From the NCBI GenBank assembly GCA_963802945.1, contig CAWDKY010000032.1:64001-128000 (forward strand): DNA of 64,000 nucleotides, read 5' to 3'. Under the pieces are notes generated by a model that did not search any database, was not told where the DNA came from, and worked only from the letters and a program-made list of their open reading frames with translations. Shown piece by piece: positions 38,881 through 56,157 of the stretch. The position numbers and the translations under genes are program-made. How positions within the stretch are numbered: position 1 is the first letter of the stretch; the number at the start of each line of letters is the position of its first letter. This DNA is from an uncultured delta proteobacterium (lineage in GTDB: Bacteria; Desulfobacterota; RBG-13-43-22).

Positions 38881-39900
38881 TCCGGTCCAATTCTCCAGAG
38901 TCTCTTGGTCGCAACAGTCGAAAAAAGGTGATCTATTAAAAAGGGAATACCTTCTCCGGTTTTGGCCGATATGGGAATCACATCCTGTTTGAGCTTTTTA
39001 AAAGCCCTTTGGATCCTTTTGAAATTGGCTTGCGATGGAGGTAAGTCCATCTTATTGACCACCACCAGTCGAGTTTTATCCAAAAGGGTCGTGATTATAG
39101 GCCTCCATTTCCTTTACCAGGGTCTGATAGGAAAAAAAGGTTCTTTCCCTGGTAAGGAGCCGTCAATCAAAAACACTAGAACTTCAGTCCGATCAATGTG
39201 CTTGAGGAATTTGAGTCCCAGCCCGGCCCCCTCGCTTGCACCGGCAATAATCCCAGGAATATCGGCTATAGTCAAGCGCTGTCCTTGATTATTTTCAAGA
39301 ATCCCAAGGTTGGGTGCAAGGGTGGTAAAAGGATAGTCGGAAATTTTGGGTTTGGCGTGCTGAAAGCCTGGAAAGCAGGGTAGATTTCCCGGCATTGGGC
39401 AGGCCCACCAGTCCTATCTGGGCCAATACTTTCAACTCCAGTAACAGCCAGGCCTCGATGCCCGGCTCTCCTCTTTGGGCGAATCTCGGGGTCCGATGAG
39501 TGGCCGTGGCAAAGTGCTTATTCCCCTTGCCCCCTCTCCCACCCCGGGCAACGACTAAGGTCTGACCTTCTCTGGTTAAATCCGCTAAGACTTCCCCTGT
39601 TTCCAGCTCCCGAACCAGGGTCCCCAAGGGAACGATGAGTCGAATGTCCTGGCCTTTTCTGCCGTCTCGATCATTACCCTGACCGTGGGCCCCTTTGGGG
39701 GCCTTAAAATGCTGATGAAAATGATAATCCTGTAAGGTCTGACACTGAGAGGTGGCGGTAATCAGGACGTCCCCGCCCTTGCCCCCATCGCCGCCGTCCG
39801 GACCTCCCCGGGGTTTAAATTTCTCCCGTCGGAAGCTTAGGCACCCATTGCCCCCGTCTCCGGATCGAACAAAAATTTTGGCTTCGTCAAAGAATTTCAA
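38877..39900 (-). CDS. obgE: GTPase Obg (several frameshifts)
   Basis: [33 protein letters not shown] in successive frames. Confidence 0.92.
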
Positions 39901-40670: not shown

Positions 40671-40921
40671 GGCTGTTCCCTCACAAAAATTTATAAATAA
40701 AAAGTTTAACATTTAGTAAACTTTTTGTCAAACATAAAAATAATTTACTTTTAGAAGTCATTTTTAATTGAACGCGGATTAAAAAAGAAACTCCCAGAAC
40801 CTTGGACTTATTGATTATCTTGTAATTTTAAGCTTTTATTCAACATACTGGAGTGGTATACTGTCAGATAAGATTGGAAAAAACGAACTTCGTATATTAA
40901 ATTGTTGGAGCATTTAAAGGA

Positions 40922-41110
40922 TGATGGATTCGTAAAAAGTCATCAAATGAGACGGCACAGTAAAAAGCTCCGGATACAAGGCGCACAAATCCTGAGGAAT
41001 GAGGCATACAAAGAAGTACGCCGCAATAAGCTTGCCCCGCTGAAAAGCGGGGAAGGGTGCAGAGCAATCCCGCGAAACGCGGGACTGATGGACTTTTTAC
41101 GAGGCCGTCA
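40922..41110. mobile_element. MITE-like element with 4-bp target duplication
   Basis: TIRs TGATGGATTCGTAAAAAGTC / GACTTTTTACGAGGCCGTCA; AGGA on both sides. Confidence 0.78.
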
Positions 41111-41568: not shown

Positions 41569-41806
41569 CTTCTTCGATTATAGAAGGCTTTGATCCAGTT
41601 GATTGGCCTTAGAGGAATCTATACAAATAATTTAGGAGGCGGGACATGAAACGTTTATCGTCAGTATTGCGGCCTGGAAGACCATCCATTTTTTTAATAA
41701 TGATTGGATTGTCGTTGCCTACATGAAAATGAAGTAAAGTAGGTGGAAGTTCGTATATTAATTATTATGTGTCTTAATGATGAATATGAAGGAGATTGAG
41801 GAAATT

Positions 41807-42589
41807 ATGGATGAATTAATAGAAGTGAGACAGCACGAGAATATTGTTGAAGTTGCTTTGAATCGGCCCAAAGCATTTAACGCCTTCAATCTTGAAATGA
41901 TTTCGGAGCTGGCAAATATTTTAATGAGGCTATCTACGGAGAGTTCTGTGAAAGGTATTGCCCTTACAGGAAAAGGAAGGGCCTTTTGTGCCGGTGGAGA
42001 TCTTAAATGGGCTGTTCATTTTTCTGAGAAGCCCGGTTCTTCGTTCCACAGGTTAGCGTCACAATTACATCAATCTGTTGTTGAAATCCGGAGAATGAAT
42101 AAACCTGTTGTAGCCGCCATTAATGGTCCGGCAGCTGGAGCAGGTTTTGCCTTAGCCTTAGCCTGCGACTTTCGTGTCATGGAAGAATCGGCAGTTCTCA
42201 CACAGGCCTACACCTCAAATGGTCTTAGCATGGATGGAGGTGGTAGCTTTATGTTGCCGAGAGTTGTTGGATTTGCCCGTGCTTTAGAAATTGCCGCATT
42301 TGACAAACCTATATCGGCGAAACAGGCGATGGACTGGGGATTGGCAACCAAGGTAGTTGAAGATGGGACGGCTCTGAAAGTGGCCATCGATATGTTGAAT
42401 GAATTAGCAAAGGTTTCACTTCATTCTTTTGGCTGGTCGAAAAAATTGCTTAATGAATCTTTCAGCAATTCATTCGAATCACATATAGAATTAGAAAGAG
42501 AAGGACTTTCTGACTGTGCAAACCATCCTGATGGGAAGGAAGGACTGAACGCTTTCATTGAAAAGCGAAAACCTGTCTTTAACCGTTAA
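41807..42589 (+). CDS. Enoyl-CoA hydratase/isomerase family protein
   Basis: LNRP, AFCAGGDL, AAINGPAAGAG, AFIEKRKP. Confidence 0.92.
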   Translation: MDELIEVRQHENIVEVALNRPKAFNAFNLEMISELANILMRLSTESSVKGIALTGKGRAFCAGGDLKWAVHFSEKPGSSFHRLASQLHQSVVEIRRMNKPVVAAINGPAAGAGFALALACDFRVMEESAVLTQAYTSNGLSMDGGGSFMLPRVVGFARALEIAAFDKPISAKQAMDWGLATKVVEDGTALKVAIDMLNELAKVSLHSFGWSKKLLNESFSNSFESHIELEREGLSDCANHPDGKEGLNAFIEKRKPVFNR

Positions 42590-42644
42590 AAAGTTTATCG
42601 GAAATATACACATAATCGGTCGCTGACCCAGGACGCATAGACTT

Positions 42645-42700
42645 GGATCAGCCCTTTTGTCTTGATATCTTACTGATACCATAATAAAGGTCCTGGCCCT
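42645..42700 (+). repeat. Palindromic spacer R1 (~52 bp)
   Basis: ggatcagcccttttgtcttgatatcttactgataccataataaaggtcctggccc. Confidence 0.75.
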
Positions 42701-42736
42701 TTTTACATTCAACAATCATTCTCCATGGAGGGTTTT

Positions 42737-43042
42737 ATGGAATGGTATTATTATCTCGCTGGCTTCTTCGCTGGTTTGTTTTTAACCAATGCTATTCCAC
42801 ATTTCGTGCATGGTATATCCGGTAATCGTTTTCCGACCCCCTTCGCAAAGCCACCGGGCAAAGGATTATCATCTCCAACAGTAAATGTTTTGTGGGCTCT
42901 TGCTAATCTCATTATCGGGTACATCCTCTTTAGAGTGGGTATGGTCTCTCAAACAAATATATGGACCCTTGTCACGTTTTTTGCCGGTGTCGCTTTCGCC
43001 AGTATAGTGTTAAGCCTTACATTCATTAATAAGGAGCATTAG
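42737..43042 (+). CDS. Small membrane protein
   Basis: Three hydrophobic segments; NAIPHFVHG, FPTPFAKPPG; GGAGG RBS. Confidence 0.8.
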   Translation: MEWYYYLAGFFAGLFLTNAIPHFVHGISGNRFPTPFAKPPGKGLSSPTVNVLWALANLIIGYILFRVGMVSQTNIWTLVTFFAGVAFASIVLSLTFINKEH

Positions 43043-43108
43043 GAACTCAAGCTAATTAAGGCTTGTAACATAAACCCTGTAAGTGAGAAACACTGTTGGG
43101 TAGAATAA

Positions 43109-43162
43109 GGGTAGGCCTGTTGTCTTGATTTTTTACTAACACCATAATAAAAGACCCTATTT
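43109..43162 (+). repeat. Palindromic spacer R2
   Basis: gggtaggcctgttgtcttgattttttactaacaccataataaaagaccctat. Confidence 0.75.
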
Positions 43163-43248
43163 TCTGTGCTCGGTCGGACGAAGAACACACTCGTAAAGAC
43201 TATTCGTCATTAGGGGAGGCACCCTATAAGGGAGCACGGAGGTGCACC

Positions 43249-44100
43249 ATGACATCATGGGAGGAAACACCGCTTGGTAGGCTTACAAGCCATATGCATA
43301 ACCTTTTTGAAGAATACTTTAAGAAGCATCCCCAAAGAGACCACAGTCAGGACAATGCTCTCCTCGAGGTCCGCAATCTTGTTCTTCAATCTGTTGAAAT
43401 TTTTCTTAAAGAGTCCAGCATTCATAAGCAGTATGGCGTGCCGATTGACTCCTTAAGTCTAGTCTCTTTTGCTTCCGATGATGAACCCGTCAATCCTCAA
43501 AGTTCCTGGATACCCATTCCAGGCGGTGAGGATAAGAAACGTCCCGCCGGGATCACAAATGAGGAGTTTACAGAATTCTCTGACCGCCTTAGTAAGCTCT
43601 TTATCGATCACGGAATGTATACATCGGGTCTTTTCGTTAATGTGCTTAACCTTTTCCGCGACGCGTACTTAAGGCCTGCAGAGAACAGACCCTTCAGGCA
43701 AGGCACATACACAAGGCTTATATTCGGCAACATAGTTTACAATGAAACAATCAAACAACAGGCTGTACCCTGTGAGGTATGTGGAGAGAATAGGGTTGTC
43801 GATATTTGCCATATCATCCCGAGGAGAATCAAGGGCACACAGAAGATTGATAATGTTCTCTTCCTGTGTCCGTCTCATCACCGCCTTTTTGATGCCTGCA
43901 TGTTGACTAAAGAGGAGTGGGATAAAGTACTTTGGACCAGGAAGTCACGCAAGTCACAGATTTACGCTGAGAAGGTTCTTAAAGTGGCACATGGGAAATT
44001 CTGGGAAAAAGTAGAAGCTGCCAATTACCAGAAGCAAACAACTTGGGAAATAGGGCTTCATGATCTCTACAAGTCGAACGAGAAAGACATCGATGAATGA
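43249..44100 (+). CDS. HNH endonuclease domain protein
   Basis: CEVCG...CHIIPR...DNVLFLCPSHHRLFD; GGAGG RBS. Confidence 0.82.
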   Translation: MTSWEETPLGRLTSHMHNLFEEYFKKHPQRDHSQDNALLEVRNLVLQSVEIFLKESSIHKQYGVPIDSLSLVSFASDDEPVNPQSSWIPIPGGEDKKRPAGITNEEFTEFSDRLSKLFIDHGMYTSGLFVNVLNLFRDAYLRPAENRPFRQGTYTRLIFGNIVYNETIKQQAVPCEVCGENRVVDICHIIPRRIKGTQKIDNVLFLCPSHHRLFDACMLTKEEWDKVLWTRKSRKSQIYAEKVLKVAHGKFWEKVEAANYQKQTTWEIGLHDLYKSNEKDIDE

Positions 44101-44276
44101 TCTTGTCTATATCCCGATAAAAAGAATAAAGGGGACAAACAGGAAATCAAAATAATTAAGAAAGCAACGTATAATAAAAGCATTGTGCTGACAGGGGATA
44201 AGCCCGTTTTGTTTTTGCAAAAGCCGATTGACCCGTGCGGCTGATTCCCCTCGTTCGGCACAGAAGAAGACAGGCT

Positions 44277-45047
44277 ATGGAACCTAAGCTATCCACGATC
44301 AAGAGACTGTTCGCTCTTTCGGGCAATCAATGCGCATTCCAAGGATGCTCTGCTCCCATTGTTGAGGGTAGCGGCTCGATAACAGGTGTTGTGTGCCACA
44401 TCTGCGCACGAAGTCCTGGCGGACCTCGCTACTACCCCATGCAAACCGATGAGGATCGACACGGATTCGAGAATCTTGTCTTGATGTGTGCCCGACACAG
44501 CAAACTCATAGACAATGAGCCGGAGCGGTACTCACCAAAATTTTTGCGAGACATGAAGACCATGCACGAAAAAGGTGGGTCGATAGAATTGTCAGCATTA
44601 CAAGCTCATATGGCTACACTCCTTTGGGAAAACTACAAGTCAATTCACATCTCAGCTGGTGGCCATGTCATGGTCAACAGCCCAGGCGCAATACAAGCTG
44701 AAAAAGTCACTATCAAAACAAATCGAGCCAGCATCAGGCCTGCTCTTCGCGAAGGCACGATCGCTGCGGATCGCTCCAAACGAAATTACGTGAAACACCT
44801 CATCGACCAGTATAACAATTTTGCCTCAAAGCAACCGGGGCGGAAGTTTTCGTTCGTAGCGATTTATGCTGATATCAAGAAACGTTTCGGGGCGCATTGG
44901 GAAGAAAATGCTATTGAGAAATTTCCTGATATAGTGGCATACTTACAGCAACGAACTGACGGGACAAGGTTGGGAAGGATCAACCACGGAAAAGGCTATC
45001 CCAATTATTCGACATACGAAGAGTATAGGCGGAAATATCGGGAGTAA
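44277..45047 (+). CDS. Protein with N-terminal HNH-like domain
   Basis: KRLFALSGNQCAFQGC, CHICARSPGGPRY, ENLVLMCARHSKLID. Confidence 0.8.
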   Translation: MEPKLSTIKRLFALSGNQCAFQGCSAPIVEGSGSITGVVCHICARSPGGPRYYPMQTDEDRHGFENLVLMCARHSKLIDNEPERYSPKFLRDMKTMHEKGGSIELSALQAHMATLLWENYKSIHISAGGHVMVNSPGAIQAEKVTIKTNRASIRPALREGTIAADRSKRNYVKHLIDQYNNFASKQPGRKFSFVAIYADIKKRFGAHWEENAIEKFPDIVAYLQQRTDGTRLGRINHGKGYPNYSTYEEYRRKYRE

Positions 45048-45062
45048 TAAAGCGTAGAATAA

Positions 45063-45200
45063 GGTCAGGTTATTGGTCTCGATGTATTACTAAGACCTTA
45101 ATAAAAGATCCGTTTCTATTCTATTTATTTCAGAAGAGTTGGGTATGCTCAATAAAGGCCTGAAATGCGATTTGGCGTGTACGGATGTAAACAGGGACTT
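45063..45200 (+). repeat. Palindromic spacer R3 plus ~60-bp extension duplicated at 46008-46140
   Basis: ggtcaggttattggtctcgat...taataaaagatcc, then tatgctcaataaaggc...gatgtaaacaggg. Confidence 0.75.
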
Positions 45201-45355
45201 TATCCTTCCAAATGGCTTTGGGGACGCTGGTAAGAAAATAAATTATCAAAAGGAATATATGAGTTGTTTGCCGCATATCCCGAATGAGTTTCTTATTTAT
45301 TTATCAGCATCCCAATGTGTCTATAGATAGAAGCCGTTTTTTTAACAAACGGCAT

Positions 45356-45508
45356 TTATCCGTCATTTAGATTTTTCTTTTTGTCCTGCCCTTCAACCTG
45401 GCAGGAAGATTTAGACATTCAGCCCTGGATGCCGAATTTCGGAAAAACCCACCGATTCAGGGCATACCAACCGGCAATAATAATCAACAACCAGATAATT
45501 GTTTTCAT
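45356..45508 (-). CDS. 50-aa membrane peptide with in-frame UGA at codon 30 (candidate selenoprotein; not in ORF track)
   Basis: MKTIIWLLIIIAGWYALNRWVFPKFGIQG-U-MSKSSCQVEGQDKKKNLNDG*; hairpin UCCUGCC-AGGUUGAAG-GGCAGGA after UGA. Confidence 0.72.
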
Positions 45509-45549
45509 TTTCCATCCTTAATGAAACCTAAGAACTCACGGTTCTTAAA

Positions 45550-45768
45550 TTACGAAGCTCATGAAAATCCCGAAGAAGAGGGGCCGCAGGAAGAGGAAAA
45601 AGACGCCTCATTCCCCGACTGCTCCCCCGCCTTGGAAAACGCTGATAACAGTCGAATGACCTTTTCTCCTTTACAATAAGGGCATTGAACCGTTTTATCT
45701 TTTGAATTCAAGATTATTTTTTCAAAGGTTCGGGAACAATCAGAACATTGATATTCATAAATAGGCAT
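45550..45768 (-). CDS. FmdB-family zinc-ribbon protein, probable C-terminal Sec (…SCGPSSSGFS-U-AS*)
   Basis: MPIYEYQCSDC...CPYC; TGA GCT TCG TAA followed by hairpin UAAGAAC-CGUGA-GUUCUUA. Confidence 0.75.
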
Positions 45769-46007
45769 ATTCATCCTCCTTCCCGTTTTCGAAGAATATT
45801 TAATAAAATAATGATAAATCCCTTTTTGTCAAGGGTCGAATCATATTAAATGCTACCAAGATGGTAGTAAAATAGGGAACGTTGATTCATAATTACTGTT
45901 ACTGAGGGATGTAGATTCCATTCATCATAACTCTCAAGTTACTCCCTCCCCCTCCGTTCGTTTGAACAAGGGCTTGCCAATGGGATCAGGTCAAGAGTAA
46001 ATAACAG

Positions 46008-46140
46008 AATCAGGTCTTTTGTCTTGATCTTTTGCTAATACCAGAATAAAAGACCCTAATAGTTCACAACGGGAGAATTTGTTATGCTCAATAAAGGCTT
46101 AAAGTGCAATTTGGGGTGCACCGATGTAAACAGGGGCTTT
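46008..46140 (+). repeat. Palindromic spacer R4 plus duplicated extension
   Basis: tcaggtcttttgtcttgatcttttgctaataccagaataaaagaccc; tatgctcaataaaggc...gatgtaaacagggg. Confidence 0.75.
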
Positions 46141-46148
46141 ATAAACAA

Positions 46149-47186
46149 GGAGTCAGGGCTGCTCTTGATTCTTATTAATACTTTATGAAAAAGATTGGAA
46201 TATGTCCAGACCATTGAGAATAGAATACCCGGATGCCTGGTATTATGTCATGAATCGTGGGAGACCGAGAGAGGAAGTCTTCACCGGCCCAAAAGACTAC
46301 AGGCAATTTATTGAAGTCATAAATGAAACAGCGGGGATTTGGAAACTGCGGGTAGCGGCCTATGGTTTGATGCCCAATCATTATCACCTTTTAGTTCAGA
46401 CACCCCATGGCAACCTGTCCCGCTGTCTGCGCCACATCGATGGGGTGTATACCCAGAGATTCAATCGAGCCCACGGCACTAACGGGCCATTATTCCGGGG
46501 GCGCTACAAGTCGATTCTGGTCGAAGCCGACAGTTATTTGCTCCCTCTGGTAAGGTATATTCATCGGAATCCCTTGAGGGCCGGTTTGGCAAAAACAATG
46601 GCTAGGTATCCCTGGAGCAGTCACAAGGATTACTTGTCGAGTGCCGAAATGAACCGTTGGTTCAATAAAGCCTTTGTACTTTCCATGTTTTCTGGGAAAA
46701 AGCAAGAGAGGCTAAGGGATTATCGACGGTTTGTTTCCTTGAAAGATGAAGAGGAAATTATAGAGATTTTAGGGAGAAAGAAGTGGCCGTCGGTTTTAGG
46801 TTCGAGAGATTTTATCTATCGGATAAAAGAGAGGTTTTATTCGGGCCAGACAGATAATGAAGTACAACGGTCCAAGGCATTGGCTCCGAAGGTAAAGCAA
46901 ATCCAAGAAGCAATAGAAAAATTTTATAGGATCAGCAGGAAAGCTTTGATGTCTTCCCAACGGGGAGTTTTCAATGAACCGAGGAATATGGCCATTTATT
47001 TGACACGCCAGTTGAGAGGGGACAGTTTAAACCAGATCGGCCTGGATTTTCGTATGAACAATTACAGTTCGGCGAGCAGTGCAATTGAAAGAACCAAACG
47101 GTTGATGGCCGAGGACAGGAAGTTAAGAACAAAGGCAAAAAAACTCTTTTTTCAGTTGAGCAAGAGTCAAAAGCAGACTTGACTCC
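46149..47186 (+). mobile_element. RAYT-like element bounded by 25-bp inverted repeats
   Basis: GGAGTCAGGGCTGCTCTTGATTCTT vs reverse complement of right end GGAGTCAAGTCTGCTTTTGACTCTT (21/25). Confidence 0.75.
46202..47182 (+). CDS. HUH Y1 transposase (RAYT-like) with C-terminal DnaA-like HTH
   Basis: MSRPLRIEYP, LMPNHYHLL (HUH), YIHRNP, YPWSS; PRNMAIYL..SLNQIG. Confidence 0.9.
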   Translation: MSRPLRIEYPDAWYYVMNRGRPREEVFTGPKDYRQFIEVINETAGIWKLRVAAYGLMPNHYHLLVQTPHGNLSRCLRHIDGVYTQRFNRAHGTNGPLFRGRYKSILVEADSYLLPLVRYIHRNPLRAGLAKTMARYPWSSHKDYLSSAEMNRWFNKAFVLSMFSGKKQERLRDYRRFVSLKDEEEIIEILGRKKWPSVLGSRDFIYRIKERFYSGQTDNEVQRSKALAPKVKQIQEAIEKFYRISRKALMSSQRGVFNEPRNMAIYLTRQLRGDSLNQIGLDFRMNNYSSASSAIERTKRLMAEDRKLRTKAKKLFFQLSKSQKQT

Positions 47187-47311
47187 TACGCGGCCCCTCC
47201 CAGGGAAAAGGCCCGATGGGAGGCCATCGATTATTTTGTGAAAGTCAGGATTTAACTATACAGATATTGTCAACTTTGCTGGTGACTTTCTTCCTTGTTT
47301 ATTCCAGTCAA

Positions 47312-47540
47312 GTGTTTTTTATCTTTTAAGGCGTTATAGGTTTTGCCCTACCAGGCGGGTTCCCCATCGCTCTGTGACATCCTACCCAACCCTTGTAATT
47401 AGAAAGTCGTCTGAGAGACGCTTTTACCTTGCTCAATTGGAGTTAGGATGTTGACGGGGAGTCATGGACTCTGTACTGGGAGGTCGCTTAAGCGCCTCAA
47501 TGGAAGAAAACGATGATCTCCCCGCCTGTGTGCTCATCCC
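47312..47540 (-). ncRNA. Putative bridge/seek RNA downstream of the IS110 recombinase
   Basis: Structured ~230-nt non-coding region with segments matching the inferred target and donor. Confidence 0.6.
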
Positions 47541-48806
47541 TTAGGCAGCCTTTTTGAGCACTCTCCTTTCGGGGGCCTGGTATTGTCCCACATAGTCGTT
47601 GTCGTCCCGAACGATGGCATGGATGATCCCTAAGAGCTTCCTCGATACGGCAATCAGCGCCCTCATCCTGCCCATGCCCCTGTCGGTCAGTCTGATATAA
47701 TACTCATACAGGATTCCATTCTTTCTTATCGTTTGGATAGCCGCATAGAACAGGATTTTTCTCAGAAGGCTCCGGCCCTTCTTGGATATCCTTCTCTGCC
47801 CTTTTCTTTTCCCCGAACTGATCTCGTAGAGGTCAAGCCCCGCCAGCTTCAGGATTTCGGACTGGGAACTGAACTTCGAAAAATCTCCCACCTCGCCAAT
47901 GAGACCGGCCACTGATACTATTCCCAGGCCTTTGATCGACAACAACCTGGAGCTAAAGGGTATCCGTTCGAGGGTGGATTCCATCTCGGCTTCTATCTCG
48001 GCCATAAAGCGCTTTTCAGCTTCAAGCTGTAGGAGGATATGCCGGATGTCCCTGACGATACCGGCCAGACCCTCTTGGATACCTACCGTCCCTTGTGCCA
48101 GGGCAATCAGAGACTCCGCATCTTGAAAACCGAACTTGCCCCGGCTCCGTTTCCACATCTCTTCCCCCAGCGCCTTCTTGGATAAGCTGCCTATCCTTTC
48201 AGGAGTGGTATATCTTTTCAGGAGGTACTGAGCCGTCTTGCCCCGGATTTCCTTCAACACGGTTTTGAATTCAGGGAAGATAAGGTAGACGAGCTGCTGG
48301 AGTTGATTGAGCAGTGCGGTCCGCTCTCCCACGTGCCGTTCCCGGGCGTGGGTCAACATCCTCAGATAGGCCGCATCCCCCTCGGGGACAATGATGGTCA
48401 AAGCCCTTCCTAGTCGGATGATATCCGCGATCACCCTCGGGTCCTTATCGTCCGTCTTCAACGGAGAGTTGTCATTGACTTCCTTCATCTTCTTCGTGTG
48501 CATGGGGTTGACCTGGACCATTTTGACCTGTTTATCCGCAAGATAATGGACCAGGGGTTCAGCATAGGGGCCTGTAGATTCATAGCCAACGAGCACCTCA
48601 TCACATCCAAAACGGTTCTTACTCGCTATAGTCATACCCCAAAACTTTTCGAATCCTTCCCGGGTGTTGCCAAACCTGAAAGTCTTGGTGCTTCTCCCGT
48701 CCATGGTTGTGCAATACCCTGTGTTGCTGGCTAAGCCTATATCCACCGTGGCAATCAGCGTGCCTTCCTTCACCGTTTTTACCCTTTTCGCCCTCAGTTC
48801 TCTCAT
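47541..48806 (-). CDS. IS110-family recombinase/transposase
   Basis: VDIG, ESTGPY, KTDDKD (DEDD); SSGKRKG..ISKKG; AGGAGG RBS. Confidence 0.93.
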   Translation of the reverse strand: MRELRAKRVKTVKEGTLIATVDIGLASNTGYCTTMDGRSTKTFRFGNTREGFEKFWGMTIASKNRFGCDEVLVGYESTGPYAEPLVHYLADKQVKMVQVNPMHTKKMKEVNDNSPLKTDDKDPRVIADIIRLGRALTIIVPEGDAAYLRMLTHARERHVGERTALLNQLQQLVYLIFPEFKTVLKEIRGKTAQYLLKRYTTPERIGSLSKKALGEEMWKRSRGKFGFQDAESLIALAQGTVGIQEGLAGIVRDIRHILLQLEAEKRFMAEIEAEMESTLERIPFSSRLLSIKGLGIVSVAGLIGEVGDFSKFSSQSEILKLAGLDLYEISSGKRKGQRRISKKGRSLLRKILFYAAIQTIRKNGILYEYYIRLTDRGMGRMRALIAVSRKLLGIIHAIVRDDNDYVGQYQAPERRVLKKAA

Positions 48807-49011
48807 TGTCATCTCCTCCTTGTTTCCTAATCGGAATAAACAGCTCCAGAAAAGGAGGATATCCTTACTTCTTGTTCCCCTCAATCATGAACTACAATAT
48901 AGCAAGCTGAACTCGTGATTTTCTAAGATCCTCCTTCCATGCAACCTTCGATTAGTAATCAATAATTCTTGTATCAGCGGACAGTAAGAATATTTTTTCA
49001 AAAAATAAAGC

Positions 49012-49046
49012 TTGACAAGTGAAAGTAGATGTGTTAGCATGCTAAC
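49012..49046 (+). promoter_or_regulatory. Promoter with palindromic operator
   Basis: TTGACA-17-TAGCAT; perfect palindrome GTTAGCATGCTAAC (49033-49046) over the -10. Confidence 0.75.
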
Positions 49047-49065
49047 TAATAAGGAGGAAGTAAAT

Positions 49066-49498
49066 ATGCCACTTCTCGACCCATTCGAAAGCCTCGGCTT
49101 TCACTGCCATCTTACACTCAAGGCTTTCATCGGTACTCTACAGAGAAAGCTTAAGGGTACAGACGTGAGTCCAGCCCAGCTTGTAGCCCTTGCGCACCTT
49201 ATTGCCTTAGGACCGCTGTCCCAGTCCGAACTCGGTGACCGCCTTTTTATCACGCGGGCTACCGCTGTGCGGCTTGTGGACCGTATGGAGCGGGACGGGT
49301 GGGTAAATCGCCAGATTGATCCTAAGGATAGCCGTGTGAAACGTGTAGTGCCTACGAAGAAAGCGACCGAGGTGTGGGAGGAGGTGTCTTGGGCGGGTCG
49401 GGGAGCTCTTGGATCAGGCCTATCGTGGCGTCCACCCTGCTGAGATCGAGACCGTAAAGCGGGTACTGGAGCGAGTGCGGCGGAACCTAAAGGGATAA
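49066..49498 (+). CDS. MarR-family regulator (frameshift ~49400)
   Basis: SQSELG..ITRATAVRLVDRMERDGWV.R..D..DSR. Confidence 0.87.
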
Positions 49499-49612
49499 TT
49501 TTTTTGATAATATTGTTAGTATACAAACATTTTTCACTTTTGCTTTAACCGAAAACGCGATAAAGATTTCATTCATTTTGTAAAAAGACTACTTATCGGA
49601 GGAGGATAGTGT

Positions 49613-50014
49613 ATGAAAAAGAAAAACTCTGCCGAAGTTATACCCCGTGAAATGAAGAACGAAGGTATCAAAGGTGTTTTTGCCCGTTATCTCTGGTCAA
49701 CAGACGACGGCTGCAAGAATTTTGCCATGCGAGTATTTGAATTTGAAGCGGGTGGTTACACTTCTTATCATTCGCATCTCGAAGATCACGAATTTTATTT
49801 CCTTGAAGGCGAGCCTGCATATGTTGATGCTGATGGTAATGAAGTTCGTTTAGCCCCTGGCGATACAATTTATTGTCCTCCTAGAGAGCCGCACCAAATT
49901 AAGAATATGGGTAGGGCAAAAATGAGAATGATCTGCGTGATTCCGATTCTCGGGAGCGGCGATGGGAAGATGAGTACGGGTTATGTGAGGAGAGAGAAGC
50001 ACAAGGGAGAGTGA
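49613..50014 (+). CDS. Cupin-domain protein
   Basis: HSH..DHEFYFLEG, PHQIKN. Confidence 0.88.
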   Translation: MKKKNSAEVIPREMKNEGIKGVFARYLWSTDDGCKNFAMRVFEFEAGGYTSYHSHLEDHEFYFLEGEPAYVDADGNEVRLAPGDTIYCPPREPHQIKNMGRAKMRMICVIPILGSGDGKMSTGYVRREKHKGE

Positions 50015-50066
50015 TTATTTGATGTGGTAGAGGAATAAAACTTTTACCAGAAAGGGAGGTACTGTC

Positions 50067-50546
50067 ATGTTTGCCACGGCATTGTATGTTTTGACCGGCT
50101 TGCTGCTTTTTATCTCTTTTCGTAAAGACAGAAAAAAAACCATTCAGGGATTAAAAAAATCATGGAAGGCTTTTGAAAATATCTTACCCCTGTTCCTTTC
50201 GATCATCATGATTATCGGGCTGGGGCTTGCCCTCTTAAGCCCCCAGGTAATATCAAAGTGGATGGGCGAAAAATCCGCCTGGCTTGGAATAGCGGCTGCG
50301 GCCTTTATCGGCTCGGTGACTCTGATACCGGGTTGGATTACCTTTCCTTTAGCCGCTGTCTTATTAAAGAGTGGAGCAGGCTTAATCCAGATAACCGTGT
50401 TTGTGTCCACTTCCATGATGGTTGGAGTTGTCACCATGCCTGCGGAAATAAGATATCTTGGACGAAAAGTCGCTGTTTTTAGAAATACCCTAGCCCTTGT
50501 TTTTTCCTTCATCGTATCCTTGATTATGTGGGAGGTGCTAAAATGA
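50067..50546 (+). CDS. Predicted permease, first of a pair (DUF318-like)
   Basis: Hydrophobic; GSVTLIPG..FPLA. Confidence 0.78.
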   Translation: MFATALYVLTGLLLFISFRKDRKKTIQGLKKSWKAFENILPLFLSIIMIIGLGLALLSPQVISKWMGEKSAWLGIAAAAFIGSVTLIPGWITFPLAAVLLKSGAGLIQITVFVSTSMMVGVVTMPAEIRYLGRKVAVFRNTLALVFSFIVSLIMWEVLK

Positions 50547-51079
50547 TAAACTTGTTTAAAAGATATAGATTTTTTTTGGCAATGGTTTTAATTAATCTGA
50601 TTTTGTTGTGGTTAAACTTGGAAGCAGGATTAAGATCCTTCAAAATATCAGCCGACAACATGCTTCAAGTCTTTCTTATCATCCCGCCTATTTTTATTCT
50701 GCTCGGCCTGTTGGATATTTGGGTGAAGAGAGAAACCATGATCAAATTGATGGGAGAAAGCTCAGGTTTACTCGGAATAACCATTGCTTTCTTACTGGGG
50801 TCTTTTGCTGCCGGTCCCCTTTATGCGGCTTTCCCTGTTGCAGGTGTTTTGTTAAATAAGGGAAGCAGGTTTTCTAACATAATCATTTTTATAGGCGCCT
50901 GGTCGACTACCAAAATCCCTATGTTATTATTTGAAACATCAACCATGGGTTGGAGGTTCATGCTGATAAGATTTATTCTGGACATCTTTGGGATCACAGC
51001 CATTGCCTATCTCACCGAAAAGATAATGACCACCCAGGAGAAAGAGATTATTTATCAAAATGCCAATATGCTTGCGTGA
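50543..51079 (+). CDS. Predicted permease, second of the pair
   Basis: AGPLYAAFPVA, GAWSTTKIPM; ATGA overlap. Confidence 0.78.
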   Translation: MINLFKRYRFFLAMVLINLILLWLNLEAGLRSFKISADNMLQVFLIIPPIFILLGLLDIWVKRETMIKLMGESSGLLGITIAFLLGSFAAGPLYAAFPVAGVLLNKGSRFSNIIIFIGAWSTTKIPMLLFETSTMGWRFMLIRFILDIFGITAIAYLTEKIMTTQEKEIIYQNANMLA

Positions 51080-51080
51080 T

Positions 51081-51256
51081 TAAAAACATATTCTATCGAG
51101 ATATTGACCATCTTTTCCTCCTCCGGTGCGGACAATGATTGGGGACCTTTCCAGCACTGAACGTGTTCTAAAGGGGTTGCATATTGGTTTAACAGTGTTT
51201 GTTTGATTAAGTATCTTTGCGAACAAATCATTCCTTCACCACCCCACTCACTTTCA
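51081..51256 (+). repeat. 176-bp direct repeat, copy 1
   Basis: One mismatch seen versus 55976-56151. Confidence 0.92.
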
Positions 51257-51337
51257 GAGGTGATGTTGTGAGAAGGAGAACATTTAATCATTTAGTAAAA
51301 GGGATTCAGAGTTTAACTTTGTGGGAGGTCAGAGTCT

Positions 51338-52741
51338 ATGAGGAAAATTAGGTTTGCGCCGGTGATCTTTATGGTGAGTCTCCTGCTCACCACTACTTCT
51401 TCGGCACAAGGCATGGATCAGCAAGCTGGAGGCGTTCGGGGAATAGAAGATCAAGCCACCGCACAAGGAAATGATTATCAGGCACTGAGCCTCGAGGATT
51501 GCCTGGCCTTGGCTCATAAGTACAACCCCCTTCTGGGAGCCAGCCGAGAGAAGATCCGGGAATTGGTGGCCGACTATGATGCGGCGCAATCAAAATTTTT
51601 CCCTTTGCTTGTCCTGGGATCTTATTATCAACGACTTGCCCCTGACAGGCTGCCACCGGGCGGCTCTCTCCCGCCCGGCCAGCAGTTGTTTGGCCTTGAG
51701 ACTCTCAGCAGTGTTACCGGGAAACAAATAATATTCGACGGCTTAAAAACCTATTACAGTTCCCGGGCCGCTAAGATTGGTATTAGAGCCCATAGAATGG
51801 AAGTGCAACAAACCGGAGATGAAGTGGCCTTTGCGGTGACCGAGGCATTCCACCGCTTGATAGAAGCCAAAGAGAATCTTAAGGTGGCCGAGGAGACTCT
51901 GCAGCAACGACAGGATTTTGCCAGACTCACCGAGGCCTTTTTTAAGGCCGGTAAGGTTACCCGCCTGGATTCCTTTCGCGCTCAATCCCAGGTTTCAGAC
52001 GCAGAACAGGCAAGAGTAGAGGCGGAAAACGGGGTTCGCATGGCCAGGGAAATTTTGAGCCGCACCTTGGGGCTAAAAGAGCAAGTCGAGGTGGATATTC
52101 GGGGGCAACTGTCCGAGCAGTTCGCTCCGGCGGGTACTGTCGAGTCATTGTGGCAGGAAGCGTTAAAAAATAATCCTGAAATCAAGTCACTCGATTTAGG
52201 AATAGAGCAGAGCCAGGCGTCAATCAAAGCAGCCCGGGGCGGGTATTTCCCGGAGATCAGCCTGCAAGGAAGCGGCGGGGTGCGCCACCGGAACGTGGGC
52301 GGCACGGAGCCGGAATGGCTGTTTGGGGTCTTTATGGAATATCCCTTTTTTGAAGGAGGATTGACCAAAGCTCAGGTGGCCAAGGCTTCCTCCCAGAAGC
52401 TGCAGCTATTGGAGAAAAAGCGCGACTTCCTCAACACCCTCAAGGTAGATCTCACCACTGCCAGGACGGACCAGGAGAACTCACGCCAGGGGGTAGTTAC
52501 CAGCCGGCAAACTGTAGCCACCAACGAAGAGGCATACGCCAGTGCCCAAACCCTTTACCGGAATGGCAAGGCCATCGGCCTGGATGTGTTGCAGGCGCAA
52601 GTGGAGCTCACCAGCTCTCGGTTCACCTTCATCAAATACGCGGTGGCATACGAAGTCGCCCGGGCGCGGATCAAGCAATTGGTCGGCTCCGGAGTATCCA
52701 AACCTTATCAACAAACCGACATTGGGGGGCAAGAGAAATGA
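51338..52741 (+). CDS. TolC-family outer membrane efflux protein
   Basis: Signal peptide, LSLEDCL..A..YNP, two OEP repeats. Confidence 0.9.
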   Translation: MRKIRFAPVIFMVSLLLTTTSSAQGMDQQAGGVRGIEDQATAQGNDYQALSLEDCLALAHKYNPLLGASREKIRELVADYDAAQSKFFPLLVLGSYYQRLAPDRLPPGGSLPPGQQLFGLETLSSVTGKQIIFDGLKTYYSSRAAKIGIRAHRMEVQQTGDEVAFAVTEAFHRLIEAKENLKVAEETLQQRQDFARLTEAFFKAGKVTRLDSFRAQSQVSDAEQARVEAENGVRMAREILSRTLGLKEQVEVDIRGQLSEQFAPAGTVESLWQEALKNNPEIKSLDLGIEQSQASIKAARGGYFPEISLQGSGGVRHRNVGGTEPEWLFGVFMEYPFFEGGLTKAQVAKASSQKLQLLEKKRDFLNTLKVDLTTARTDQENSRQGVVTSRQTVATNEEAYASAQTLYRNGKAIGLDVLQAQVELTSSRFTFIKYAVAYEVARARIKQLVGSGVSKPYQQTDIGGQEK

Positions 52742-53898
52742 AATTTTCTGGCAGAAAGAAGGCTGTTGGGGTTGCCTTAGGCATTCTAATCATAATACTG
52801 CTGGGCTATCGACTGTTCTGGTATCGTCCCGCAGTGGCCGTAACCGTGGTTAAGAAGGCAGAGATTCAGAGCAAAGGCCATGGTCCGGGCACGGTGCAAT
52901 CCAAAGTGCCGGTGACGGTGAGCACTAAAATTACTGGGATTTTGGAAAAACTCCATACCGATCAGGGGGATCAGGTGCAGAAAGGCCAACTCCTAGCTGA
53001 ACTTGATATAGCTGAGCTGAGGGCCCGAACCGCCGCCGCCCGGGCAGCCAAGAATCGTGCCCAGCGAGACCTGGCGCGGGCCGAAGCCGATTTAGTCAAA
53101 GCCCAGGCTAACTTGGCCCTGGCTCAAAGCAATTATCAGCGGGACATGGAAGTATTCAAGCCTGGCTATATTTCACAGGCGACCTTTGACAACACTAAAG
53201 CCGCTCTTAAGGTGGCGGAGAGTGAAGTCAATGCATCTCAAGCTGCTGTGGCAGCTTTGCAGGCGCAGGTTGATCAGGAGGAATCGGAGACCCATGCGGC
53301 CGAGGCGGTATTTGCCTATGCCCACATCCTGGCGCCCATGAACGGGTTGATCACCGTGCGCAAGGCGGAGGTTGGAGATACAGTATCTCCCGGAACACCC
53401 ATCTTTCAAATGGTGGATTACCAAATCTGGGCAGCCTCCTGGATTGATGAAACCAAGATAGCCCAACTGCGGGAGGGACAGAAAGCTTCGATCAAACTGC
53501 GCTCGGGGCGAGTTTACCAAGGGGAGGTTATCCGCCTCAACAAAGAGGCCGATACCGTCACAAGGGAGTTGGAAGTCGATGTGAAATTTAACACCTTACC
53601 GCATCCCCTTGTTATCGGCGAAGAGACTGAGGTGGACATTGATACGGGCCGCCAAACTGCTTTGGCCGTTCCCTTATCTTCCATCATTAAACGGAACGGC
53701 TCTCAAGGGGTGCTGGTGGTTTCCAAGGGTTTGGCAAGTTTCCGTCCCGTTGTTATTGGGTTGCAAGACGAGCACCAAGCTGCCGTCCTGGAGGGCCTCA
53801 GGGAGGGTGATATGGTAATAATTAATCCGGCGGGAATTGAACCGGGGAAACAAGTCAAGCCAGAAATTAAGTCCCCAGGGAAGAAGCAGAACCCATGA
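52738..53898 (+). CDS. Efflux periplasmic adaptor (MacA/HlyD-like)
   Basis: GDQVQKGQLLAEL, ILAPMNG, GLREGD. Confidence 0.9.
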   Translation: MKFSGRKKAVGVALGILIIILLGYRLFWYRPAVAVTVVKKAEIQSKGHGPGTVQSKVPVTVSTKITGILEKLHTDQGDQVQKGQLLAELDIAELRARTAAARAAKNRAQRDLARAEADLVKAQANLALAQSNYQRDMEVFKPGYISQATFDNTKAALKVAESEVNASQAAVAALQAQVDQEESETHAAEAVFAYAHILAPMNGLITVRKAEVGDTVSPGTPIFQMVDYQIWAASWIDETKIAQLREGQKASIKLRSGRVYQGEVIRLNKEADTVTRELEVDVKFNTLPHPLVIGEETEVDIDTGRQTALAVPLSSIIKRNGSQGVLVVSKGLASFRPVVIGLQDEHQAAVLEGLREGDMVIINPAGIEPGKQVKPEIKSPGKKQNP

Positions 53899-53961
53899 GC
53901 TTAGTCGAATTCCATCTTAATTTATAAGCAGATGCTTAGCCCCCCTCTTTAAGGAGGATTG

Positions 53962-55161
53962 ATGGATTTAGCAGTCTATGACCTGAAGCTTCATAAAGTC
54001 CGGTTTATCGCCACGATTATCGGGATAAGCCTGCTGTTTACCATTGTACTCGCCATGAATGGCCTGTATCGTGGCAATATCTATGAAGGCCTCGCTCTCA
54101 TCAAGGCCACTAATCCTGATCTGTGGGTGGTGGAAAGATATCGGGGCGGACCTTTTAACGAACAATCCACCATGCCCGAATTTTACCATTATAGTGTTAA
54201 GGCCATCCCTGGCGTAGAGAAAGCCAGTTCCTATATTTCTTATGCCGTGGAAAGGCAGATCGGGGGCAAGAGCCAACATTTCAGCATCGTCGGCTATGAT
54301 GTCTTTGGCGGGCTCGGAGGGCCGCAAAAGATCTACGCCGGGAGGAATATCGAGCACGCCCATTATGAAATGGTCGCTCATCCAAAATTAGGGGTGCACC
54401 TTGGGGACACGGTTCCTCTGGGCCTGCATACCTATACGGTGGTGGGTTTGACCCGGGAGTCGGTCGATCCGCAGGGGGATCCTTTGGCCTACTTGTCTCT
54501 GCCCGATGCCCAGGAAGTGCTCTTCCAAAAAGACAATGAAGAAGTTCGCAATCAGCGAGAACAACTGCTTCGCACCCTTTCCAGCCAGAGCTATTTATCT
54601 GCAGCTCAGGCGGAAAAATTGCTCCCCAAGTTGGAGCCCGACACCCACATTATTAACGCCATCCTGGTAAAGCTGAGACCCGGGGCGAATCGCGCCGAGG
54701 TAGCTCGCCAGATCGAAAGCTGGCTCTATTTCAATGTCTTCACCACTCAGGAAGAAACCCAACTGGTGCTGAAAGGGCGATTGGCCGGCATGACTCAACA
54801 GCTTTTGCTTTTTAGAATCCTTCTGCTGATCATCTCCGTAATCATAATTTCCTTGGTTGTCCATACATTCACCATGGAAAAAATTCGCAGTATTGCTGTC
54901 ATGAAACTCATCGGTGCTCCTAATTGGGTAATTGTCCGGATGGTGATGGAACAGTCGCTCCTTTTGACTATCAGCGCCTTTTTATTTGGACTGGTTCTGA
55001 TCCAGAATACTTACCCCCTATTTCCCAAAACCATATTGAGAGTCCCCAGCGATGACCTGATTACTTTTATAATAGCCTTTGTCGGGGGTGTCCTTGCCAG
55101 TATTTTAGGGCTTTGGCAGGCATTAAAAACCGAACCCCATATGGCCCTGGGGGAACAATAA
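53962..55161 (+). CDS. ABC permease (MacB/FtsX-like)
   Basis: N-terminal TM, periplasmic domain, EKIRSIAVMKLIGA. Confidence 0.88.
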   Translation: MDLAVYDLKLHKVRFIATIIGISLLFTIVLAMNGLYRGNIYEGLALIKATNPDLWVVERYRGGPFNEQSTMPEFYHYSVKAIPGVEKASSYISYAVERQIGGKSQHFSIVGYDVFGGLGGPQKIYAGRNIEHAHYEMVAHPKLGVHLGDTVPLGLHTYTVVGLTRESVDPQGDPLAYLSLPDAQEVLFQKDNEEVRNQREQLLRTLSSQSYLSAAQAEKLLPKLEPDTHIINAILVKLRPGANRAEVARQIESWLYFNVFTTQEETQLVLKGRLAGMTQQLLLFRILLLIISVIIISLVVHTFTMEKIRSIAVMKLIGAPNWVIVRMVMEQSLLLTISAFLFGLVLIQNTYPLFPKTILRVPSDDLITFIIAFVGGVLASILGLWQALKTEPHMALGEQ

Positions 55162-55847: not shown

Positions 55848-55975
55848 TCACAGGGGTGCAAAACGGTTAGATCTTAATCTGCCAAATTTTATTCGATTTA
55901 TTCATCGAGGAGATTCTCTAGGCTTAGATTCCCGTTATCAGCCCAGGAATTCTTTATCCATTTGAATTTTGGACC

Positions 55976-56151
55976 TAAAAACATATTCTATCGAGATATT
56001 GACCATCTTTTCCTCCTCCGGTGCGGACAGTGATTGGGGACCTTTCCAGCACTGAACGTGTTCTAAAGGGGTTGCATATTGGTTTAACAGTGTTTGTTTG
56101 ATTAAGTATCTTTGCGAACAAATCATTCCTTCACCACCCCACTCACTTTCA
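55976..56151 (+). repeat. 176-bp direct repeat, copy 2
   Basis: Matches 51081-51256. Confidence 0.92.
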
Positions 56152-56157
56152 ACTGAA

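Follow-up and report, generated by a model that had tools for sequence, protein, structure and literature searches.

What are four short palindromes doing between unrelated genes, beside a gene for an HUH transposase-like protein? An earlier interpretation made from the DNA letters alone (the sequence-only reading) placed four same-orientation palindromes at 42645, 43109, 45063 and 46008 of the 64-kb stretch analyzed here (the window), and offered two explanations: an integron-like gene-capture array driven by the HUH enzyme, or REPIN-like units that concentrate at cassette junctions. Each of these start points falls inside one of the repeats, R1-R4, that our repeat search of the window recovered as one family of four copies, all on the plus strand and 72-78% identical to the reference copy (Table 1). 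R is an AT-rich imperfect palindrome of ~50-72 nt, with a G+C content of 0.32-0.40 in the window copies. All four lie inside 3.4 kb of the 64 kb, spaced by 463, 1954 and 945 nt, and R3 starts 15 nt beyond the stop codon that ends the second HNH gene.

A pattern derived from R2 found three sites in the window at ≤3 mismatches, compared with none in 100 shuffles; R3 lies outside this limit, as it needs more than 3 mismatches. An nhmmer profile of R1-R4 returned only those four in the 64 kb (E 6.5e-18 to 1.3e-16; next best, E 0.14). Two genomes carry R, the window and a relative (L001) that is ~90-93% identical to it, and we used the four window copies and three from L001 to build a covariance model. 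Run with filters off over 84 kb (the 64-kb window and 20 kb of L001), it detected no R beyond the seven, apart from their own reverse strands. A scan of 185,579 species genomes, using an exact pattern that matches just one of the three L001 copies, yielded a single site, in L001, whose MAG is part of that collection. Pairwise identity among copies is 64-80% when R1 and its L001 orthologue (89%) are set aside, and 23 columns of the 72-nt unit, in a block running from GAT to AATA, are invariant in all seven. R is therefore a genuine repeat family, held in one orientation and, in the sequence searched, confined to this locus. The profile scan of the genome and its relatives envisaged by the sequence-only reading thus extends to 84 kb and two genomes, in the second of which the same HUH gene accompanies R.

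Table 1. Features of the repeat-bearing locus, in window coordinates
Feature	Position	Strand	Remarks
Enoyl-CoA hydratase gene (ECH_1)	41777..42589	+	conserved with L001, along with R1 and the membrane-protein gene
R1	42633..42704 (core 42645-42694; repeat-search span 42637-42694)	+	gap between enoyl-CoA hydratase and small membrane-protein genes; covariance model 81.5 bits
Small hydrophobic protein gene, 105 aa	42725..43042	+	without any family match
R2	43096..43167 (core 43108-43157; repeat-search span 43100-43157)	+	gap between membrane-protein and first HNH genes; 78.8 bits
Two-gene HNH module	43249..45047 (genes 43249-44100, 44235-45047)	+	type II R-M pair stands here in L001
R3	45050..45121 (core 45062-45111; repeat-search span 45054-45111)	+	opens ~155-nt long unit; 77.8 bits
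D3a, 69-nt module after R3	45135..45203	+	D3 family, 84% identity between both window copies
FmdB module	45371..45774	-	FmdB zinc-ribbon gene 45559-45774 and small membrane-like ORF 45371-45508; absent from L001
R4	45995..46066 (core 46007-46056; repeat-search span 45999-46056)	+	opens second long unit, upstream of TIRYT gene; 78.5 bits
D3b, second 69-nt module copy	46074..46142	+	ends 5 nt ahead of upstream TIR
Upstream TIR 46148-46173 and following bases	46148..46200	+	inverted-repeat search; degenerate fifth R-like copy ~46151-46194
TIRYT gene, 326 aa	46202..47182	+	N-terminal Y1 HUH nuclease domain; C-terminal DnaA-domain-IV-like HTH
Downstream TIR	47162..47187	+	22/26 complementary to 46148-46173; overlaps stop codon 47180-47182

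The symmetry of R is clear in the seven-copy alignment, where 87.6% of the 105 cells of a 15-pair helix are paired, compared with 35-57% when the partners are slid. Folding energy, on the other hand, was no better than that of shuffled sequences (z -2.27 to +1.37 in eight folds), and covariation did not rise above the shuffle control, with one compensatory pair and 245 of 500 shuffles doing equally well. The R hairpins are thermodynamically weak. Given these weak hairpins and a covariation signal not above controls, the step in the sequence-only reading by which RAYTs nick REP hairpins is not directly transferable to this locus.

The HUH gene itself had been read as a RAYT-like transposase. 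Its product matches Pfam Y1_Tnp (1.6e-11, residues 12-122) and Bac_DnaA_C (2.8e-10, residues 232-296), and residues 223-319 align with the DnaA domain IV chains 8btg and 1j1v of the PDB. The NCBIfam model REP_Tyr_transpos gives 71.9 bits, under its cut-off of 80 (E 4.9e-20, residues 6-139), and transpos_IS200 gives 16.1 bits against a cut-off of 55. The catalytic residues H60, Y61, H62 and Y119 are invariant in all 25 sequences compared (the window protein and 24 homologues). We dropped the classical RAYT identity in favor of the TIRYT type, which combines a Y1 HUH domain, a DnaA-domain-IV-like HTH and 26-nt terminal inverted repeats (TIRs). By its predicted architecture the gene is a TIRYT, a class already described: in the available text of their descriptions, TIRYT/TIRtron (Di Nocera et al. 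2013, PMC3733652) and subclass 2.1.2 (Quentin et al. 2018, PMC6006769), whose C-terminal HTH is of Bac_DnaA_C, HTH_23 or HTH_28 type, fit its domains and TIRs. The type is numerous, with 7,557 homologues scored among 8,000 candidates.

The two TIRs of the gene are 26 nt long and 85% complementary, and the right one does run over the stop codon, as had been noticed from the sequence; the same arms are visible by eye around the TIRYT gene of L001. The sequence-only reading also likened the left arm of R to these inverted repeats, a likeness that stands for the upstream arm region and not for the downstream arm. Aligned to the R consensus, the upstream TIR region scores 37, against 15.9 +/- 3.1 in shuffles, none of 2000 of which reach 37, and with scores totaled across the seven R queries it comes top of 12,620 background windows. 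The R-like copy here ends 8 nt ahead of the TIRYT ATG. For the downstream TIR, the extended likeness to R is not significant, since 175 of 2000 shuffles reach its score. Profile searches miss the TIR regions (covariance model at E≤10, nhmmer at E≤100). R thus resembles the upstream TIR region of the gene beside it.

Further comparisons concern TIRs described elsewhere. A GGGGWSAS motif is found in the TIRs of the majority of TIRYT cases in the available text of PMC3733652 and PMC6006769; read by eye, the window TIR opens with a near match (GGAGTCAG, agreeing at 7 of 8 positions), and the TIR of L001 agrees equally well (GGGGTCAA, 7 of 8), which for a motif this short is weak evidence. A distant plasmid homologue (35% identity) likewise has TIRs of 26 nt, the right one running over the stop codon, and the 12-mer GGGTCAGGCCTT occurs both in its TIR and in the L001 copy of R1 (read by eye). 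When L001 was scanned with this plasmid TIR, R arms made up four of the top 10 places; the same scan of the window placed no R copy among its top 10.

The genes between the repeats are as unrelated as had been claimed: ECH_1, the 105-aa hydrophobic protein, two HNH-type proteins, and FmdB with a small neighboring ORF that contains an in-frame TGA. The HNH-type proteins are unrelated even to one another (BLASTP E 0.25), the first belonging to the HNH_2 family and the second matching PADLOC PDC-M68A (9.4e-28). D3a includes a possible small ORF from 45145 (MLNKGLKCDLACTDVNRDF...).

Comparison with L001 showed that these genes differ in the second genome while repeats are retained. At the corresponding locus L001 has three R copies, on one strand only; the genes lying between these copies are a type II R-M pair and a PIF1-WYL helicase, in place of the HNH and FmdB genes. 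Across 43082-~46147 of the window and 9608-~5150 of L001, the only common sequence is the R+D3 units, which have the same order and orientation beside the TIRYT gene in both genomes. R4 and the L001 copy at the corresponding place are 73% identical, against ~93% for the adjoining ORF. Because L001 keeps repeats with different genes between them, the locus may be a repeat-marked site of gene swapping, for which any mechanism is a proposal. The sequence-only reading proposed to test whether such variation breaks at a fixed repeat position. Gene content indeed differs and the repeats persist, but homology between window and L001 stops at 43081, 19-26 nt upstream of R2, a copy without an L001 counterpart, and the L001 module boundary before the R-M pair has no repeat; the breakpoints therefore do not share a single fixed position in the repeat. 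The same 10 kb has further indels without R at their bounds. These are unrelated to R, so breakpoints could have come to lie near R by chance, through general plasticity.

Among the closest described systems are TIRtrons. In the available text of PMC3733652 and PMC6006769, these share with the window a RAYT-like protein of ~300 aa that joins a Y1 HUH domain to a C-terminal HTH of Bac_DnaA_C type, long TIRs that bracket the gene, one of them over its 3' end, and a small family of TIR-related repeats that may cluster; some TIRYT genes have TIRs that are members of repeat families occurring as singles, dimers or clusters. The array seen here is not described in that text. In the window, unlike in those accounts, a single array of co-oriented repeats lies to one side of the gene, every copy is a palindromic doublet with a conserved core that the downstream TIR lacks, and the copies part gene modules that vary between two relatives. 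REP/REPIN-RAYT systems are alike in having an HUH Y1 gene beside intergenic palindromic repeats that are related to its flanks and have two inverted arms. However, REPs are 20-40 bp palindromes of high copy number dispersed genome-wide (PMC3733652, available text), whereas R is AT-rich, folds no better than shuffles and occupies one locus in the 84 kb searched, and the window protein falls under the REP_Tyr_transpos cut-off and has an extra HTH domain. With IS200/IS605 elements the locus shares a Y1 HUH enzyme and repeats in direct orientation, as LE and RE hairpins are. Here, by contrast, the gene is bracketed by inverted repeats, and the covariance model found no R downstream of it in the window. 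We rejected an IS200/IS605 identity given the IS200 score below cut-off and the lack of a like-oriented R at the other end of the gene.

We favor, at about even confidence, a reading in which R1-R4 are REPIN- or MITE-like derivatives of the end of a TIRYT element (a "TIRtron") that punctuate a variable, defense-rich islet. They would be short sequences, non-autonomous and related to one end of the neighboring element, each composed of two TIR-like arms inverted around a conserved core, and would stand to TIRYT, by analogy, as a REPIN does to the RAYT beside it or a MITE to its parent element. The TIRYT protein, with its HUH Y1 nuclease and DnaA-like DNA-binding domain, would recognize R sites, binding or nicking them, and may have made the copies by seeding R locally into the intergenic gaps by its own gene. 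This local seeding, as a proposal, rests on two genomes. The stretch would be a hot spot of gene turnover, mostly of defense-type modules, in which R units, some with the 69-nt D3 added, stay in place as punctuation and the intervening modules give way to others; we infer that R may participate in this exchange. The longest exact match between any two repeat units inside one genome is 16 nt, which argues against plain homologous recombination. Between the two explanations first offered, REPIN-like units at module junctions fit better than an integron-like capture machine, although weak hairpins and covariation no higher than in controls set R apart from REPs.

Other explanations can be weighed against the same observations. 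Each R might be a portable sigma-70-type promoter (TTGTCT, 17 nt, CATAAT) for the module downstream, with its symmetric flanks as the operator of a dimeric regulator; that regulator could possibly be TIRYT through its DnaA-like HTH, creating a small local regulon that includes its own gene. We regard this as unlikely. The four window copies and the R-like copy at the upstream TIR do sit 8-92 nt ahead of co-oriented starts, the same hexamer positions are filled in all seven copies, and a sequence conserved without covariation fits recognition of double-stranded DNA. A consensus scan listed R1 and R2 as promoter-like at one register (42657-42685 and 43120-43148; 9 of 12 matches), but just these two of the four window copies pass, and promoter-like sites are no commoner across the region than in shuffles (11 vs 12.2 +/- 2.9). 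Two of the seven copies lack the A at position 2 of the -10 hexamer (R3 has T there, and one L001 copy has G), conservation is higher in the "spacer" columns than in the hexamers, and R3 would serve only a doubtful small ORF, since the genes that follow are encoded on the opposite strand. It is quite improbable, in our view, that R and R+D3 are decaying traces, without present function, of ancient segmental duplications or of a MITE that has died out, in a region that varies for unrelated reasons. The 64-80% identity of the copies (the R1 orthologue pair aside), their weak hairpins without a covariation signal and the nearby indels without R at their bounds would suit decay; it sits poorly with 23 of 72 columns staying invariant in seven copies despite replacement of the surrounding modules, and with units whose order, orientation and neighboring gene are shared by both genomes.

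Two further alternatives would make the locus a capture device. TIRYT might cut and rejoin two co-oriented R on single-stranded DNA, so that the segment between them is released as a circle and re-enters beside another R, letting the array capture and shuffle single modules. This is distinctly unlikely, even though it would account for a co-oriented array with gene-sized spacing, for non-homologous modules between kept R+D3 units in the two genomes, for units too diverged for ordinary homologous recombination, and for the divergence of R4, which looks as if it traveled with its upstream module; the catalytic residues of TIRYT are also intact. Against it stand the left breakpoint outside R2, with no R at that boundary in L001, the absence of R downstream of the TIRYT gene, the weak hairpins, a comparison limited to two genomes that include no empty/occupied site pair, and a literature search that found no such system. 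That R is the attC site of an integrase-less integron array (CALIN) is extremely improbable. Integron arrays and CALINs resemble the locus in their co-oriented, imperfect palindromes (here of 50-75 nt and downstream of ORFs) at ORF-sized spacing and in cassette-like turnover between relatives. An IntI-type recombinase nearby is not required for a CALIN, and attC sites are conserved in structure, not sequence; R, by contrast, has a long conserved sequence core. Tyrosine recombinase families had no match in the 62 window ORFs or six L001 ORFs scanned, an HUH nuclease being the neighbor instead, and the attC core boxes RYYYAAC (R'') and GTTRRRY (R') were seen by eye at the foot of the palindrome in none of the four R copies. 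Some window modules, moreover, hold two genes, and one module lies on the opposite strand. With neither a recombinase among the ORFs scanned nor core boxes seen by eye, the integron-like analogy of the sequence-only reading is not supported.

We return to the favored reading of R as derivatives of a TIRYT element end, and to what the locus may mean. It is a long shot that the array captures genes by means of an HUH single-strand nuclease, not a tyrosine recombinase; TIRYT would then cut and rejoin co-oriented R, and modules, here mostly anti-phage genes, would be excised as circles and inserted beside the TIRYT gene. If true, such a platform would parallel the integron in function while relying on different chemistry, and would give the very large TIRYT family a first cellular role; its proteins are given no function beyond "transposase-like" in the available text of PMC3733652 and PMC6006769. 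The locus couples a TIRYT gene with a private, co-oriented set of repeats that outlasts swaps of defense-type modules, and thereby provides a concrete, testable candidate substrate for the enzyme. Should TIRYT drive the swapping, it would represent a new route of gene capture; should it not, the locus would still be a clean example of TIR-derived repeats arising beside their parent gene.

The palindromes between the genes of this stretch form a family (R) whose four co-oriented copies are spaced 463, 1954 and 945 nt apart. A sequence-only reading of the stretch had described these copies, and they were recovered here by a repeat search, by a pattern derived from R2 (three sites at ≤3 mismatches; 100 shuffles gave no site) and, as that reading had proposed, by scanning with an nhmmer profile of R1-R4, which returned these four alone within the 64-kb window (E values 6.5e-18 to 1.3e-16; next best, 0.14). 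The consensus of seven copies, three of them from a related Thermodesulfobacteriota metagenome-assembled genome (L001), is approximately GGTCAGGTCTTTTGTCTTGAT-ATTTTACTAAT-ACCATAATAAAAGACC, close to the repeat sequence first written down. Twenty-three columns are invariant across the seven, most of them in the central block from GAT to AATA. At gathering thresholds, Rfam matched only one tRNA in the window and nothing at the R copies, and a stretch covering R, the 69-nt module that follows R3 and R4 (D3) and the terminal inverted repeat (TIR) of the adjacent transposase gene had no match in plasmid or phage collections. The short arm motif CAGGNCTTT showed no useful enrichment, with nine matches in the window against 3.1 expected and two of the nine within the array.

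The R palindrome is formal, not thermodynamic. In the seven-copy alignment, 87.6% of the 105 cells of its 15-pair helix are paired, compared with 35-57% when partners are slid by one to three columns. Covariation is confined to one pair with change on both sides, a result equaled by 245 of 500 shuffles. RNAalifold added three outer pairs with some compensatory change, at a consensus energy of only -4.58 kcal/mol; the four window copies, folded as single-strand DNA on both strands, gave z scores of -2.27 to +1.37, and a terminator scan flagged no R copy.

The adjacent ORF (46202-47182) encodes Y1_Tnp and Bac_DnaA_C domains, and the C-terminal part of its product aligns with PDB chains of DnaA domain IV. 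Residues H60, Y61, H62 and Y119 are invariant in all 25 aligned sequences (the window protein and 24 homologues). Its best NCBIfam model, REP_Tyr_transpos, scored 71.9 bits, under the cut-off of 80, and the IS200 model scored 16.1 bits; the AlphaFold model is poor (mean pLDDT 51.1). Homologues are abundant, with 7,557 of 8,000 scored candidates at E≤0.001 and a length of 326 aa in most of the matches listed. Close relatives (P0002-P0009) are 73-91% identical, and tblastn against plasmids gave distant homologues only (identity ≤35%). Quentin et al. 2018 (PMC6006769) and, in earlier work, Di Nocera et al. 2013 (PMC3733652) describe RAYT-like proteins whose tail is a Bac_DnaA_C or HTH domain (subclass 2.1.2), named TIRYT for the long flanking TIRs, many with GGGGWSAS, that they have instead of REPs; some of these TIRs are members of repeat families whose units occur alone, as dimers or grouped together. 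The class they describe is an exact fit for our gene in both domains and TIRs. The RAYT-like transposase of the sequence-only reading is thus a Y1 HUH gene, but a TIRYT, a known kind, rather than a classical RAYT; its right inverted repeat does overlap the stop codon, as had been noticed.

Alignment indicates that R is likely related to the TIRs of this gene. By summed local-alignment score against the seven R copies, the upstream TIR region (46131-46210) ranks first against 12,620 background windows (205; mean 101.9, sd 16), with other AT-rich windows close behind at 201 and 197. The R consensus aligns with 46148-46205 over ~46 nt with three gaps at a score of 37, which none of 2000 shuffles reached (15.9 ± 3.1), suggesting that the upstream TIR region is a degenerate fifth R copy ending 8 nt before the ATG. 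The downstream TIR region scored 21, a value reached by 175 of 2000 shuffles, and its similarity is not significant. The resemblance proposed between the R arm and the inverted repeats around the HUH gene therefore holds for the upstream region but not for the downstream one. Neither TIR was reported by nhmmer or by a covariance model with filters off. A distant TIRYT homologue on a Legionella adelaidensis plasmid (NZ_LR134433.1; 35% identity) has 26-nt TIRs, the right one likewise overlapping the stop codon, and inspection by eye showed GGGTCAGGCCTT in both its TIR and the L001 copy of R1. When this TIR was scanned over L001, R arms were four of the best 10 places; over the window, no R arm was among the best 10. 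The same plasmid carries two co-oriented ~80-nt AT-rich repeats (4220-4299 and 6929-7008; 76% identical) that bracket two hypothetical genes and the TIRYT gene and are the sole two copies in the 365-kb record and the plasmid collection. This pair is a hint that TIRYT genes may more generally have private repeats close by.

The genes between the R copies are those the sequence-only reading had listed. The enoyl-CoA hydratase matches ECH_1, and the membrane protein is a hydrophobic protein of 105 aa without a family match. One HNH gene encodes an HNH_2 protein; the product of the other, unrelated to it (BLASTP E 0.25), matches PADLOC PDC-M68A and CBASS/Shedu-type HNH effector models. The remaining pair comprises the gene for an FmdB zinc ribbon and a small ORF containing a TGA in frame, 14 nt 3' of which a 7-bp GC-rich hairpin begins; from their sequences, both could encode selenoproteins, as had been supposed.

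Features of the R array and its surroundings (window coordinates)
Feature	Position	Strand	Remarks
R family, four copies	42637-42694, 43100-43157, 45054-45111, 45999-46056	+	repeat search of the window
TIRs of the TIRYT gene	46148-46173 and 47162-47187		26 nt, 85% complementary; right arm over stop codon
FmdB zinc-ribbon gene	45559-45774	-	ends ...GFS-TGA-AS-TAA
Small ORF with in-frame TGA	45371-45508	-	MKTIIWLLIIIAGWYALNRWVFPKFGIQG-TGA-MSKSSCQ...
Block common to window and L001	33641-40900		
Block common to window and L001	41669-43081		hydratase gene, R1, membrane-protein gene
Block common to window and L001	45974-47236		R4, D3b (the D3 copy after R4), TIRYT gene
Split-gene or partial-match sites	8960-10460, 12534-14002, 15401-16443, 32188-33625, 39298-39900, 50067-51076		

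D3 opens a candidate small ORF (window 45145-45327 and 46084-46188; L001 about 7753 and 5181) with a conserved start of 19-20 residues (MLNKGLKCDLACTDVNRDF) and variable tails; one L001 copy has ATA instead of ATG. Variable columns number 8, 4 and 9 at the three codon positions. Searching 1.84 billion representatives with the D3 peptide (phmmer) gave four matches, one of them a real relative: P0123, of 71 aa, matching at 83% over residues 1-24. Beyond this shared N-terminus, P0123 continues into sequence whose L001 counterpart is located farther downstream, so a third genome has a shortened L001-like arrangement. D3 has no similarity to the inside of the TIRYT element.

An exact pattern of R's invariant columns, run over 185,579 species genomes, returned one site, in L001. 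The pattern fits one of L001's three R copies, giving the scan a sensitivity of about one in three; it missed all four copies of the window, and the source genome therefore apparently lies outside this collection. L001 is syntenic with the window at ~90-93% identity, and its R copies all lie on the same strand. The rest of the L001 assembly yielded no further copy at that sensitivity, and the family is therefore neither abundant nor dispersed there. The variable segment reads R2, HNH, HNH, R3 with its D3 copy, then FmdB and the small TGA ORF in the window, and N6_N4 methylase, EcoO109I-type endonuclease, R+D3, a short ORF remnant and PIF1-WYL helicase in L001. The sole sequence common to both segments is the R+D3 unit (~155 nt, ending ...CTTTAT), which occurs twice per genome; the upstream TIR begins 5 nt past the second copy in both. 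R1 is 89% identical to its L001 orthologue. Across the right-hand block, identity is 70-78% over R4-D3b, 82% over the TIR and ~93% over the ORF; by this comparison, R4 looks to have been exchanged along with its upstream module and not inherited with the TIRYT gene. The short L001 ORF between R+D3 and the helicase gene (~7190-7420, minus strand) ends ...EQITIIAITPHP, which, by eye, we take to be like the C-terminus of a RelE/ParE-type toxin.

Other parts of the locus have also been rearranged. The 16-nt repeat GAASTTCGTATATTRA occurs twice in each genome (window 40885-40900 and 41746-41761, with 0.08 expected in the window; L001 11775-11790 and 10933-10948). In L001 it flanks an intact 267-aa sensor-domain gene; the window slot holds an inserted DUF3795 gene, two GC-rich hairpins upstream of it (~41033-41085) and no more than a short sensor-gene remnant (~41647-41740). 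A 9.15-kb segment (47237-56387) bordered by the 7-nt direct repeat ATTATTT encodes an IS110-family protein, MarR, a cupin, a split ArsP permease and an OEP-HlyD-MacB-ABC efflux set; its absence from L001 looks like a deletion there through microhomology. The C-terminal remnant of an IS3-like transposase, which is longer in the window (~56360-56490), is joined directly onto the TIRYT terminator in L001. Besides IS110 and TIRYT, the window has a mobile-element gene of a third kind, for an IS30-like transposase (HTH_38 and rve; 18946-19932), located 22 kb upstream of the array. In several places one gene is broken up into neighbouring ORFs whose matches cover successive parts of a single Pfam model (AMP-binding, twice; BPD_transp_2; Peptidase_M48; ArsP_1), and the matches of the Obg ORF are limited to GTP1_OBG and the first residues of the GTPase model (MMR_HSR1 1-23 of 113); these cases reflect either error-prone assembly or many pseudogenes.

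Module content differs between the window and L001 while the R+D3 units stay, and no two units of the same genome share an exact match longer than 16 nt, which is shorter than RecA-dependent recombination needs. Both observations would suit an HUH-driven platform for gene capture at R sites. Gene content between repeats does vary, as the sequence-only reading anticipated, but not with breakpoints at a fixed repeat position: the left breakpoint, at 43081, lies 19-26 nt upstream of R2, and in L001 the restriction-modification pair follows the membrane-protein gene, with no repeat at that boundary. Moreover, the DUF3795 slot and the 9.15-kb segment lack R at their borders, so some breakpoints could have come to lie close to R by chance, through the general plasticity of the locus. 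With two genomes as its support, we regard capture as quite improbable. As for the choice once offered between an integron-like array and REPIN-like units, the latter, in a REPIN/MITE-like form, fits best; no ORF among the 62 scanned in the window matched a tyrosine recombinase family, attC-type core boxes were seen by eye in none of the four R copies, and the literature on TIRYT and HUH cassettes contained no HUH-run cassette array among the matches listed, judged by title and abstract.

Alternatively, the R copies may be promoters, perhaps regulated through the TIRYT HTH. All seven contain TTGTCT-like and CATAAT-like hexamers 17 nt apart, a promoter scan flags R1 and R2, and a co-oriented start codon follows 8-92 nt downstream of each of the four window copies and of the degenerate fifth. 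However, two of the seven lack the key A in the -10 hexamer, the spacer is conserved better than the hexamers, and promoter-like sites in the region are no commoner than in shuffles (11 versus 12.2), making this role doubtful. It is compatible with a REPIN/MITE-like origin, as an R bound by the HTH could be both marked and regulated.

Judged by their sequences, the best reading of the R repeats makes them REPIN/MITE-like relatives of the upstream end of TIRYT. They are confined to a variable, defence-gene-rich islet beside this gene and are kept while the modules between them turn over. This arrangement of R, modules and TIRYT is a new variation on the known TIRtron and TIR-repeat theme. The reading that would matter most, if true, is that of a capture platform driven by the HUH enzyme.
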